Part shown: piece after piece, positions 935 to 45,404 of the stretch
Numbering within the stretch: position 1 is the first letter of the stretch
Layout of the letters: every line of letters begins with the position of its first letter
Source of the DNA: Octopus sinensis
Taxonomy: Eukaryota
Assembly (NCBI RefSeq): GCF_006345805.1
Contig: NC_043015.1
Location: forward strand, 20,522,001 to 20,586,000
Direction of reading: 5' to 3'
Length of the DNA: 64,000 nucleotides
The notes under the pieces: generated by a model
The model's input: only the letters and a program-made list of their open reading frames with translations
What the model was told of the DNA's origin: nothing
Databases searched by the model: none
Program-made: the position numbers and the translations under genes

Positions 935-1650
935 CGCAGTGAATATATAACTAGCTGTGTGTGTTTGTAAATACGCATATGTGCCCGTATGTGTGTGTGT
1001 GTTTGTGTCTGTGTGTGTTTGTGTCTGTGTTTGTTTAGGGATGTGAAATTAGGTATTAGAAAAAAAAAGAAAAAACAAAACATCAAGCAGGAAAGCAAAA
1101 ACGGAATTTGAATAGATAAAAAGCATAATAGGGAATATCTATATTTGGCAATGAGGTCAGAGGTGACAGTGAGCTGTAGAAGGAGCGGTCAATATTAGTG
1201 GAGTGTTAATGTATTATGGGGAAGAGTATGTGTGGGGGTGGTTGTGCGGTGTTCGGAAAATAATAATAATAATAATGATATTGATTTTTCACTATAAGAT
1301 AGGTGTCGTAGTTTTTCAAAGGCCTGGTTTGTGAGCGAGGTGGGGTGTATATATATATATTAATATATAAACTGCAATTCCAATCTTCTGTTCTAAAGAT
1401 AGTCCAACTATTTTATATACACAACCCTCTCGCACACCCTACTCCCCAACCGTCTCCCTCGTCCCCACCCACTGGTATTGACCTCAAGTTCTATACCTAA
1501 CTGTCAATTATTGACCCCTCAACCAAATATATATTCCCTATTATTCTTTCATCCATTCAAATTTTCATCGTTTATTCTAATTCCTAAATTCACATTCCCT
1601 AAACGCGAACGCAGTCACACGCACACATACCTATACGCATATATTCACTA
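935..1650. repeat. Old, diverged ~700-bp inverted repeat (fold-back)
   Basis: 1032-1205 (GTTTAGGGATGTGAAATTAGGTATTAGA...ATAATAGGGAATATCTATATTTGG...GGTCAATATTAGTGG) aligns with the reverse complement of ~1465-1604. Confidence 0.75.
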
Positions 1651-1835
1651 ACATACACACATATATATACATTTATACACAAGCATGCTCATACATATCT
1701 GCACGCACTGATTCACAAATGCACTCACACACATATGTAAAAGTCGACCAATGAGAATGAGTGCTCAACACTCAATTACTTCCTTTTCTTTTGGACATTC
1801 CAATGTTTCCTGTTTCCGAAGAAGAGCTTTGCGCC

Positions 1836-1878
<43 letters not shown>

Positions 1879-1934
1879 TTCGTATTTGTATTTGGTTTGC
1901 AAGATTCTTGATGTGAATTCATGTGTTGAAAGAA

Positions 1935-2165
1935 ATACTTACTGGACCTTGGGAGGAGCATTAAGCCGGTAATAATAAACACTAGCAATACTGAACATTT
2001 GAGCGATTAACTGTTTGACATATGAGTTTGGAGAACTAGTAATAAACGGCTGATCGTTAAATTGGTTAACAGAGTAACTAACCGATTAATTAACAACAAC
2101 AATAAAGGACCGAACCAGTGCGTGTGTTTATTATTACCGGCATAATTCCCTCCCAAAGATAAATA

Positions 2166-2170
<5 letters not shown>
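1935..2170. mobile_element. MITE-like element with ~45-bp terminal inverted repeats
   Basis: CTTGGGAGGAGCATTAAGCCGGTAATAATAAACAC pairs with GTGTTTATTATTACCGGCATAATTCCCTCCCAAAG; abuts (TA)n. Confidence 0.7.
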
Positions 2171-2201
<31 letters not shown>

Positions 2202-2361
2202 AAATTAATCAAAGGACATACATAGTATGTCTACCTACCGGGAAATAACAGTCAAAACTCTTATTAAATCGCCAAAAATACGCTGATGAAAACTATAGAA
2301 ATTAAACGAAGGCAAAATCAGGTTAAGACAATCTACTAACATATATTTAAGTATCTGGACT

Positions 2362-2415
2362 CACGTGAACCGGTTTCTAAACTGGCAAAATAAGCCTTAG
2401 CTTCTTCAGCACGCG
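2362..2415 (-). ncRNA. Type I hammerhead ribozyme motif (Penelope-like minimal type)
   Basis: Minus strand reads CGCGTG-CTGAAGA-AGCTAAGGCTTATTTTGCCAGTTTA-GAAAC-CG-GTT-CACGTG: 6-bp helix I, intact core, palindromic helix III (ACCGGT), GUU site. Confidence 0.75.
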
Positions 2416-2516
2416 TTACCATGACTAGAGATTTCCAACCCATCGCTTTGAAGTCTGTGCTGCAACTGATTCGTTTCGCGCTGAAACCACAGCAGCCACC
2501 AGTGTAAATTATTTTG

Positions 2517-2583
<67 letters not shown>

Positions 2584-2980
2584 CATACAGTAATTGCTTA
2601 AGCATTGGGTATGTACCTAGTAGTGAGTACCAATGAAGAGCGTTCACTGCCTATTGCTACCCGGATTCATCCACGTTTCTTCTTTACAATTGTCGTTGGA
2701 TCTGCCTCAAGAATTCTTCTGTAACAGAACCTGTCACTCGCGATTCGTGCCCGAGGGCTAAAACATATGATCACTTATAACATGCTATATTAAAACCAAA
2801 CAACAGAGGGTTTACTTAACGAGATACCCCTTGTTAAATCTCCTGGTACTGAAGAATACACAACAAACAGTTGTAGGTATCTCACCCGCGAGGGATCGAT
2901 GCAAGGTGGAACGAAACGATCGGTATGTGCAATAAAATTTCTCGTATATTCCATTGCACCCCTCTCCATCCTTTGATCAA

Positions 2981-3013
<33 letters not shown>

Positions 3014-3051
3014 GCTGGATTGTAAAGAAATGAATTCGAACATGATTTATT

Positions 3052-3385
3052 TTTTATTTATTTCAGTCACTGAATCGCGGACATGCTGGAACAACGCTTT
3101 GGAGAGTTTTGTCGAATAAAATCGTCTCATACTTTATCGGTCGTTCCTGCCTAACCGTTAAGTTATGGGGACGTAAATATACCAACGTCGGTTGTCAAGC
3201 AGTGGTGGGGGACAAAAACCAACACATATACAGACAGACACACACACAGATATGGCTGGTTTCTTTCAGTTTGTTTACTACAACCACCCATATGTCTTAG
3301 GTCGGACTGAGGCTATAGTAGGAGACACTTGCTGAAGGGGCTACACTCTGGAATGGACCATACGGTTCGGAAGCCCCATAGCCAT
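3052..3385 (-). mobile_element. SINE family A, diverged full copy
   Basis: Reverse tail, internal (CA)n, and reverse core GAGGCTATAGTAGGAGACACTTGC. Confidence 0.8.
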
Positions 3386-3439
3386 ATACACACTGAGTGT
3401 GAACAAGTGGTACACATGCGTAGTAATACTCTGTTATAA

Positions 3440-3626
3440 TGGTTTCAAATTTTGGCAGATGGACAGCAATTTTTTAGTATTCAACTGATATTAAATTCTA
3501 TCGACCACCAAATAAGGAAACGCAAAATCTACCTCGGTGGTATTTGAACTTAGAACGTACAAAATTGCAAGAAATGCTGATAAACATTTTGCCTCACGTG
3601 CTAACCACTCTGCTGCTCCACCGCCT
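3440..3626 (-). mobile_element. SINE family B, diverged
   Basis: Aligns with the better-preserved copy at 42075-42289 (ACCTCGGTGGTATTTGAACTTAGAACGTA...GCTAACCACTCTGC...CCGCC). Confidence 0.7.
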
Positions 3627-3909
3627 GGTATAATGAAAGATGAAGCTGCCCGCAGAAAGTATACAGCACAACCATTGAACTTGTCAACGTGGAGTCAATT
3701 CAACCGTTTTTTTATGACGATGTTCAACAAATATCTCCTACGACGTCAGAATGATGGAAATATTTCACCTTCAACATACGAATTTTGTTCCTTTCACAAT
3801 GGAAATAAGTACAAAATGGAATATACAGACCTACATGTGTGTGTGTGTGTATATATATGCCTATTTATATCCATACATCCATACATATGTATACATATAT
3901 TCACACACA

Positions 3910-4199
3910 CATACACACATATATATATACGTACATATACATGTACAATACCACTCCATGTGTGTATATACATATACCTGTCCCTATGTATATATCTATA
4001 TCTATATATATATATATATACTTATATATGTATATATATATTATCTATATATATATATATATATATATACGTATATATATTTATATATATATATCATATA
4101 TAATGCTTATATACACATATACATAAACATATATATGCTTATATATACTATACATATATAGCTTATATTACATATACATATATATAATACATATATATA

Positions 4200-4230
<31 letters not shown>

Positions 4231-4884
4231 ATATATATAATATATATATATATGTATATACACATATCTTGTATAAGTAATTTTCACAAACTGGTCTCCT
4301 TACATAAACATCCACGCACACTCTCATACATGTACCTCCATACACAACATGTTTATACACGTCTGAATGCGAGAGTGTGCGTGAATAATCAAAAGTTCCC
4401 CAATTTTTGTTTTTGTTAAAAAGGATGAAATAAATGAATTAGGTAAATGTATTAAATGAAATTTGCCTCCGGTTATTCTGATTTCATTTTTTTCCGTTAC
4501 TTTTCTTATTAAAAGAAAATCACGGCTACAGCATGACCGCACTCAGTCGCACAGATTAATATACATGAAATAACTAACTGACTTAGTCCCAAGAAACAAA
4601 ATGTACACCAAAAGAAATGAATAAAATAAAAGTTAAAAAACGAGTCAATTCTAAGACAGTAATTTAAAATGTAGCCCTGGGTTAAGAACGAAACGAAATT
4701 TAATACAAGTCAGCATCAACAAGATTATGATTAAAACTCAAATGAAGAAAACAAGAATTCCCATACAGATACAAACACACATATATATATACGTACATAT
4801 ACATGTACAAATACACCTCCATGTGTGTATATACATATACCTGTCCCTATGTATATCTATATCTATATATATATATAATACTTA

Positions 4885-43468: not shown

Positions 43469-43890
43469 ACCGTAACGTATATTTGCCAAGTGTGGCGTCA
43501 TCCTATACAGGACAGTGCTTCTGATGTTTGTAGCCCCAGAAAGACATCTCCTCCAGCTGGCTAACGACACACATTTTCATTGTCCGTTTATATTTGCGAG
43601 GGAGATCATCGATCCCATCTTTAGCCTTACATGATAGACACGGTGTCGAGTTTCTAGGTGTTTCCCCGTCCTCAGCGTGTGCTAATCAGCAGCTAGTGAT
43701 GGAAGCTCAGGCAACTCGCAAAATACTATATATTTTTCAAGCGACACACTGTCGCTGATCTCGTAGAAGAGAGAAACTGAGCGAGATTTTCTCAGTAGCA
43801 GTAGGGTCCCGTAACATATATTTGCCAACTGAGTGTGGTGTCCTATAGAAGGGAGTGCTACTGATGTTTACAGCCCCAGGAAGACAGGCT
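43469..43890 (-). mobile_element. Element with ~78-bp direct repeats 340 bp apart enclosing a decayed hammerhead motif
   Basis: CCGTAACGTATATTTGCCAA...CTGATGTTTGTAGCCCCAGAAAGACA (43470-43546) is repeated at 43809-43886; minus-strand ACACG-CTGAGGA...GAAAC-TCGACAC-CGTGT at 43680-43638. Confidence 0.65.
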
Positions 43891-44210
43891 CCCTTCCTGC
43901 GGCAGGCGAGGTGGAATCAGGAATCATATATGCGCTGATTTTAGATTTAATCAATCTTCATCAGTGACGCATTTACCCTGTCGGCAAGGGGTAAAGAGCC
44001 AAAGTCATCTTGTCAGCTTTATAGAGAACATTGTAGGAAACATCGACTGATTTTGAAAGTGAGAATTATAAAAATGCTTGCACGTGGCTACTAGTTGTTT
44101 TGGTTAGTATTACAGGTACTTACTAGCACAGTCCGTCACTTTACTGACTATTATATATATATATAATATATTTATATATATATTTATATATTATATTATA
44201 TATATATATT

Positions 44211-44258: not shown

Positions 44259-44500
44259 CTTTAATTTATTAAAGCTGCAAAACATCCCCAAAATATCTCA
44301 AAAAAATGCTACTCAGAGTTTCACGTTCCTGTTCATCGGACAGTTTGGATTCTCAATCTAAACTATCGGACGAATGTGAGCATGAAACTCTGAGTAGCAA
44401 TTTTTGGTGATATCCATGTCATGTTTTGGCAGCATAAATAATAATGAAGCATATTACTCTACCTCCGATATTCGAGTACTATTTTTCCTCAACTTGTGCT
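44259..44500. mobile_element. Palindromic element with divergent hammerhead motifs, plus tail
   Basis: Minus 44343-44307 CTGT-CCGATGA-ACAGGAACGT-GAAAC-TCTGA-GTA-GCA; plus 44363-44399 CTAT-CGGACGA-ATGTGAGCAT-GAAAC-TCTGA-GTA-GCA. Confidence 0.8.
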
Positions 44501-44678: not shown

Positions 44679-44985
44679 GATGGGCGTGTTTATGTATCTT
44701 GTTTTTAGGAATATTGAGTCTGGGATGATATAAAAAGTAACTGAGGGTAAGTATTGTATGTAAAGTTCATTTGTATGGGAAAGTGGAAGGTTAACTGTAA
44801 TACACGAACTCACATTTCTTCGAACCATGATCCAATATTTACGCGCTAATATGTATGGATATATTTACTTCGAGATTCACATTTTCGAAAAAGAATTACT
44901 TCACCTCCTCGAAATTCTTAAAATCACATCACATCAGCAATGTATATATACATACATACATACATATATACATATATATATATTT

Positions 44986-45033
44986 ATCTAGGCCGATGAA
45001 GGACAATGATCCTGAAACACGGTGTCCCTAGAT
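44986..45033 (+). ncRNA. Type I hammerhead ribozyme motif (U4C core variant)
   Basis: ATCTAGG-CCGATGA-AGGA-CAATGA-TCCT-GAAAC-ACGGT-GTC-CCTAGAT: 7-bp helix I, 4-bp helix II, helix III ACA/TGT, GUC site. Confidence 0.8.
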
Positions 45034-45404
45034 GCAGTTCCGGCAGTTGGGGGTGTTTGTCTCCCCTTCGTATGTGTATATAAGACAGGATAAAATGTGT
45101 CGAAGCTGTCAGGAGGCGTTCGGGCCCTCCTAGGGCTATATAACGGTGGTTGTACCCCTACTGTCAATTCTTGTTAGATTGACAGTATACAACCAGTATA
45201 TATATATACTATATATATATAATATATATATACATATATACATATATATATACATACATATATTTATATATATATATGTACATGTATAGATATATATATA
45301 TATAATATATATATATAACATATAGAAATACATACATACATTATAACATATATATAAATATGAACACACGCGTCTCATCTATCTATATATCTATCTATTT
45401 ATTT

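Follow-up and report, generated by a model that had tools for sequence, protein, structure and literature searches.

The stretch analyzed here, referred to as the window, comprises 64,000 nucleotides of Octopus sinensis DNA (NCBI RefSeq assembly GCF_006345805.1, contig NC_043015.1, positions 20,522,001 to 20,586,000 of the forward strand). Between two TA-rich tracts it holds a short insert that carries a hammerhead motif and ends in a hairpin, and some 500 bases to the left of this lies a second, unrelated fold-back element, hereafter the 44.3-kb element (Table 1). The initial annotation, made from the letters alone, had read the same CCGAUGA core, with C at position 4 (C4, or U4C), in both elements, and had placed the insert in (TA)n with a hairpin at its end, all of which we recovered. 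Window positions 43501-43560 and 43841-43900 are alike and lie ~340 bases apart, perhaps as the remnant of a tandem repeat.

Table 1. Features of the insert, its flanks and the neighbouring fold-back element, in window coordinates.
Feature	Position	Strand	Remarks
Old palindromic fold-back element, unrelated to the insert	44260..44497	-	CCGAUGA core at 44339-44333; one-sided tail
TA-rich microsatellite, left flank	44943..44986	.	
Insert, a single 5'-truncated arm	44987..45197	+	Positions 150 to ~360 of the 364-base putative retrozyme unit
Hammerhead helix I, 5' strand TCTAGG	44987..44992	+	Also the truncation point of the window copy
Core CCGATGA (CCGAUGA in RNA)	44993..44999	+	C at position 4 is the family state
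Helix II	45000..45013	+	A-U at base, then 3 pairs; 6-base loop 45004-45009
GAAA, near-palindromic helix III, GUC	45014..45026	+	GAAA 45014-45017, helix III 45017-45025, GUC 45024-45026; cut predicted after 45026
Helix I, 3' strand CCTAGA	45027..45032	+	
Orphan 3' arm of the family's long helix I extension	45033..45070	+	From the full-monomer fold, pair counts
Terminal hairpin, immediately ahead of the first of the two family end sites	45148..45194	+	z -6.4
(TA)n, right flank	45197..45361	.	

The motif has the three helices of a type I hammerhead around C3-N-G-A-N-G-A, GAAA and UH, with helix I open, and a descriptor that demands helix lengths of at least 6 (I), 4 (II) and 3 (III) matched once in the 64-kb window versus not at all in 60 shuffled windows. 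The annotation had called this fold textbook, and while the helices, the core and the GUC site lie where it had put them, helix II stands on an A-U pair and helix III, ACAC-G-GTGT, is nearly palindromic about a single central base, which allows a monomer at most 3 pairs with a 3-base loop. Helix III was predicted not to fold alone and to self-pair with a second copy at -9.3 kcal/mol; near-palindromic helices of this type are described as a dimer-acting form in metazoan hammerheads in the available text of PMC4209133, and the fold is therefore not a textbook one. The predicted minimum-energy fold is likewise not the hammerhead, as it pairs the core with helix III, and the Rfam hammerhead models gave no match at the gathering score or at E<=10, the only Rfam matches being microsatellite-driven miRNA models. 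Across 18 distinct rows from the C4 family and its sister families, 95.6% of the cells were paired, versus 74.6% in shuffles and at most 54% in slid alignments, and 13 of 15 helix pairs showed both-sided changes, figures that are inflated by kinship among the rows; within the C4 family alone covariation is thin (both-sided change in 2 of 33 pairs). The core letters and GUH were constant throughout these families while the helices varied in pairs. The hammerhead motif is real, yet it is internal to its repeat unit and does not head the element.

This internal position is evident from other copies, in which ~150 bases of the family unit precede the hammerhead. At locus L032, ORF-less units of 364 bases run head to tail, accompanied by an inverted truncated arm, and the window insert corresponds to the last 59% of this unit, with 94% identity to the L032 unit and up to 95% to the best copies, and with its 3' end at the first of two family end sites. 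The annotation's proposal of a compact 210-bp element headed by a ribozyme thus gives way to a 5'-truncated piece of a tandem unit, whereas its broader description, a ribozyme-bearing non-autonomous retroelement, is borne out. The end-hairpin pattern had 1,660 exact matches genome-wide (2.7 Gb), and a genome search with the window insert returned 1,679 candidates, the best 40 of which were scored, with a top identity of 94-95%. The tandem units at L032 and elsewhere are short and ORF-less with a type I hammerhead in each; the unit is self-paired, with a predicted raw folding energy of -136 kcal/mol as a circle, and in the predicted full-unit fold helix I is extended by ~40 further pairs, an extension whose 5' partner is lost in the window copy. 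No ORF combining reverse transcriptase and GIY-YIG domains between pseudo-LTRs was present in the unit copies examined. The family thus has the sequence features of a metazoan non-LTR retrozyme, with cleavage and circles putative, and its new aspects are the fixed C4 core and a clear Penelope footprint. Contigs from three runs that we presume to be RNA, as no label says so, cover the unit in a form in which strand, ends and circularity are unreadable.

The unit also occurs in runs under three other organism labels. Loose contig ends (runs X1, X4, X12 and X16) suggest that more families share the terminal hairpin region, and one low-depth contig carries a run of T-to-C changes resembling opposite-strand RNA editing.

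The window copy itself is probably a dead fragment and ordinary as such. Its terminal hairpin is more perfect than that of the family (-22.2 versus -17.1 kcal/mol), which is a private trait: the loop-side variant was found in 0 of 100 hairpins among the matches listed (1,660 in all), and other private changes comprise a 3-base loss and 3 substitutions. The hairpin-perfecting changes, at window positions 45123-45168, resemble the outcome of template switching in a near-palindrome; they could instead be an assembly error.

Position 4 of the core was examined by counting exact 21-base matches genome-wide, which yielded 369 with C4, 12 with U4 and 9 with G5A, such that C4 accounts for 369 of the 381 matches that have either C or U at this position, where U is canonical; C4 was also found in 23 of 25 cores of a hairpin-chosen sample. 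These frequencies settle that U4C is not copy-specific decay, in agreement with the annotation, whose proposal thereby passes the consensus check that it had set itself. Because C4-G5 forms a CpG, decay yields both minor forms, U4 and G5A, and the two are equally frequent (12 versus 9, p 0.66). The idea that all U4 copies arose by CpG decay was rejected when 8 U4 insertions were fetched: a shorter helix III is common to four of them and in two both units have U4, which means that a small U4 sub-lineage exists; in 3 others the partner unit has C4. C4 occupied all 8 rows of the family branch, which lie up to ~20% apart and include older subfamilies, whereas most sister retrozyme families have U4 (11 of 11 sister rows compared); C4 is therefore likely to be a derived, fixed state on this branch.

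Outside the branch, the fold-back family of the 44.3-kb element (1,132 candidates, ~75-84% identity) has a hammerhead-like C4 motif in each arm, with C4 in 13 of the 16 copies listed. The genome also abounds in Penelope-like elements that have long open frames and a C4 or U4 hammerhead motif of their own: a minimal hammerhead upstream of a 1,008-codon frame for reverse transcriptase and GIY-YIG had 10,103 exact matches, and among 100 matches listed, 68 were C4 and 32 U4 by eye. The suggestion that U4C is lineage-typical consequently holds, on the copies compared, for this branch, the 44.3-kb family and the Penelope-like hammerhead, and not genome-wide, given the U4 of most sister families. At L159:1365-1400 and 1637-4663 we noted a large Penelope-like family with this 1,008-codon frame, a CA-rich 3' region and the minimal hammerhead, which we take to be Neptune-like.

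The mode of insertion was read from 101 arms mapped at 58 loci, which were drawn consecutively from the list of hairpin matches. The 3' ends of the arms cluster at two sites ~58 bases apart, both of which close with a word resembling TAT; of the 91 arms ending near these sites, 64 run into TA repeats. Among 39 head-to-head pairs, 31 had one end of each kind and none had two alike, the other 8 having an unclassified end. The inverted truncated arm, the optional tail at one end and the microsatellite targets are features of non-autonomous Penelope-like elements, for which tails and inverted arms are described as hallmarks (PMC8557442, in its available part). According to the available text of PMC11167929, the Penelope-like element PAc has two internal start sites in vitro, cuts both strands of AT-rich targets and uses uncut RNA as its main template, and its hammerhead is protein-assisted; a one-of-each rule would be expected from an enzyme that starts at two internal sites and cuts the target on both strands. 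As 34 of the 101 arms span the predicted cut site and 16 are longer than one unit, still ORF-less, a linear monomer released by cutting did not serve as the template, and we infer an uncut multimer or a circle, which look alike in this evidence. The 5' ends are scattered and do not pile up where the cut is predicted (1 of 101 arms compatible), and the genome therefore gives no direct sign of cleavage. Four of the 101 other arms start at unit 149-152, as the window copy does (expected 0.5, p 0.002), a hot spot resting on these 4 arms, and at locus L217 the inverted arm folds back exactly at this start point. No autonomous element sharing the unit or the hairpin was found, the one Penelope-like family compared (30 loci) having no similarity to it. 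A Penelope-like element adjoining locus L026 was considered as a partner and rejected, as it belongs to a large separate family without similarity to the unit.

We are fairly confident that the insert is a copy, truncated at its 5' end, of a 364-base repeat that lacks an ORF and has a type I motif in which C4 is the family state, and that it was likely written into (TA)n by a Penelope-type enzyme; by its sequence the family as a whole is a non-LTR retrozyme, for which a Penelope-like element is the likely mobiliser. The reverse transcriptase and endonuclease, borrowed from such an element, would nick both strands of a (TA)n tract, prime at two internal sites that lie beyond the terminal hairpin and copy an uncut multimeric or circular RNA, while unit-length RNA would be freed by slow cutting of the ribozyme, either in dimeric form or aided by protein. 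The available text of a vertebrate survey, which reports 8 of 9 retrozyme dimers as uncleaved in vitro (bioRxiv 10.64898/2026.07.22.740005), counts against this account. At helix I the growing DNA may stop or fold back; the window arm would have stopped at the 5' strand of this helix, where new DNA can fold back on itself, and the hammerhead therefore looks like the head of the element in the window copy. The strict one-of-each end rule bears on how animal retrozymes re-enter the genome, as it ties them to PAc-type internal start sites and names RNA sites to test.

Other accounts of the insert were weighed against the same data. A compact SINE-like element of 210 bases, with a ribozyme head that frees the 5' end, seems barely credible: the 4 other arms starting at helix I would suit it, yet 97 of 101 start elsewhere, a type I cut would put the 5' end at 45027 and not 44987, and the upstream continuation seen in the tandem unit refutes it. 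A 5'-truncated pseudo-LTR of an autonomous Penelope-like element, the ORF-bearing copies of which are rare or unassembled, would account for every insertion mark, all of them being those of Penelope-like elements as far as PMC8557442 describes them, and our genome searches scored best candidates only. Against this, the units abut directly at 364 bases, the 16 arms that exceed one unit have no ORF anywhere, and in the 58 sampled loci no arm was seen running into other shared sequence, making this origin improbable. Somewhat more room must be given to the view that the C4 hammerhead is catalytically dead, its motif kept as structure, and that the family spreads only through an enzyme-binding hairpin, which we nonetheless consider unlikely. 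U4C lowers in vitro activity "considerably" in the viroid where it is known (PMC3088659, available part), PAc insertion in vitro was unimpaired by hammerhead mutants (PMC11167929, likewise in part), the base of helix II is weak and no end signal marks the predicted cut site. Yet G5A copies have not been amplified (9 versus 369), the core letters and GUH stay fixed as the helices change in pairs, the viroid U4C variant stays infective by the same account (PMC3088659), and position 4 is only C or U among the 100 Penelope-like motifs listed. That a supposedly harmful core change became fixed and amplified suggests that slow cutting may be tolerated, or even useful if uncut RNA is the template.

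The retrozyme units are themselves interrupted by another element. At loci L031 and L013, a 1.75-kb element sits at the same base ~35 bases upstream of the hammerhead core. It has a poly(A) signal and a single ORF of 454 codons, which encodes a zinc knuckle (zf-CCHC at E 9e-4, slightly short of the cut-off) and has ZCCHC3-like Atlas matches, that is, a LINE-type ORF1 without ORF2, which we presume to be of Tx1 type. This ORF1-only lineage was seen at L031:1846-5300, L162-L178 and L276-L295, often stacked, and its ORF1 had 12,081 candidates in the genome. Thirty loci containing its 3' end were inspected: 19 continue into the hammerhead unit at the same base, 6 into a copy of the target followed by another element, 4 are situated elsewhere, and the remaining locus belongs to another subfamily. 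In 16 of 18 composite loci, chosen as known composites, the unit is split by 1-3 copies with a duplication of 8-16 bases, and a strict filled-site pattern had 27 matches, such that the element shows both target-site duplication and target preference. When 20 diverged loci (57-76% identity) were picked by ORF1 alone, with the flanks unseen, the descriptor placed a hammerhead no more than 110 bases from the poly(A) signal in 13, versus 0 of 136 and 1 of 229 control poly(A) signals (1 of 365 together), and in 3 more of the 20 the core was visible by eye; the distance from poly(A) signal to core was always 21-40 bases. Divergence among the hosts reaches about half of the letters, and their cores are of the U4, C4 or U3-A8 kind. 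No ORF2 partner was found in the ~6 kb beyond any of the 20 ORF1 loci or at the 27 filled sites (1.5 kb each), and the 2 copies retrieved with a poly(A)-junction pattern were of the ordinary kind. We found no published description of a LINE that targets hammerhead repeats, or of octopus hammerheads.

A sister retrozyme with the U3-A8 covariant core lies at L291:2431-2487. A close subfamily of the ORF1-only element (L272-L274 and L286) targets short repeats inside a palindromic element that lacks a hammerhead and has CCAAT- and TATA-like motifs in its arms, and at L275 the 5' end of the subfamily keeps a piece of this palindromic target even at an unrelated site.

Judged from these junctions, the ORF1-only retroelement inserts just upstream of hammerheads in the C4 and sister families and has switched between them. 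It might instead be cargo inherited within one composite retrozyme, and in line with this ORF1 and target distances are correlated at depth (Mantel 0.43, p 0.0003, 24 loci) and some composites occur in inverted arms (L031 and L169). Within the C4 family, however, no such correlation holds (Mantel -0.04, p 0.64, 19 loci); both tests are made noisier by L048, which is incomplete, and L176, with a bad ORF1 alignment. Target duplications flank and separate the ORF1-only copies, the close subfamily sits in a different repeat, and at L279 and L290 the ORF1 and its host come from different groups, these ORF1s being closest to those in other target families, although recombination between composites may be a source of such mismatches. 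We accordingly think inherited cargo a rather improbable origin of the independent-looking, site-specific copies. The fullest form of the invader reading is an ORF1-only hyperparasite of retrozymes that switches families, with the host ribozyme cutting read-through RNA, the target-copy end guiding insertion and the C4 family serving as the current young host; we offer it tentatively and consider it doubtful as a whole. For its targeting step, we hypothesize that the element uses the ribozyme or read-through RNA; for other elements, the available part of PMC4494074 states that co-transcribed target RNA makes targeting stronger. If the invader does read or use the ribozyme, this would be a target class that our literature searches did not find in print and a possible case of RNA-guided LINE targeting.

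Comparison with known systems places both elements. Like the metazoan non-LTR retrozymes, as described in the available portions of PMC7229834 and bioRxiv 10.64898/2026.07.22.740005, the octopus family has an ORF-less unit in the mussel size range of 350-390 bases, one type I hammerhead per unit and a self-paired monomer (PMC7229834), and it co-occurs with Penelope-like elements. It differs from those accounts in having C4 as the family state, in forming dispersed short head-to-head inserts under a strict two-end rule instead of long arrays, and in having no sequence found in common with an autonomous partner, the octopus unit being known from sequence alone. With PAc (Poseidon, Anolis) and other Penelope-like elements it shares two internal start sites giving an optional tail (PMC11167929), an inverted truncated arm, AT-rich or (TA)n targets and a palindromic helix III (PMC4209133, PMC8557442); in contrast to what the available text of these sources describes, it has no ORF, its tail is ~58 bases versus 30-40, and its 6-pair helix I with a long extension is unlike the minimal Penelope-like hammerhead. 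The viroid U4C hammerhead has the same core change, there a rare variant in the part of PMC3088659 available, here the majority state of hundreds of genomic copies in several subfamilies. The ORF1-only invader recalls the Tx1-clade elements that target repeats, namely Tx1 in Tx1D, and both Tx1-Mar and SINEU in Mariner-N4 (PMC4494074), and the ORF1-only element HAL1 (PMC5753468), in its single ORF1, its target duplications of ~8-16 bases, its mobile-element target and its tandem stacks separated by the duplication; unlike these, as far as the two sources describe them, its targets are the hammerhead repeats of several diverged families.
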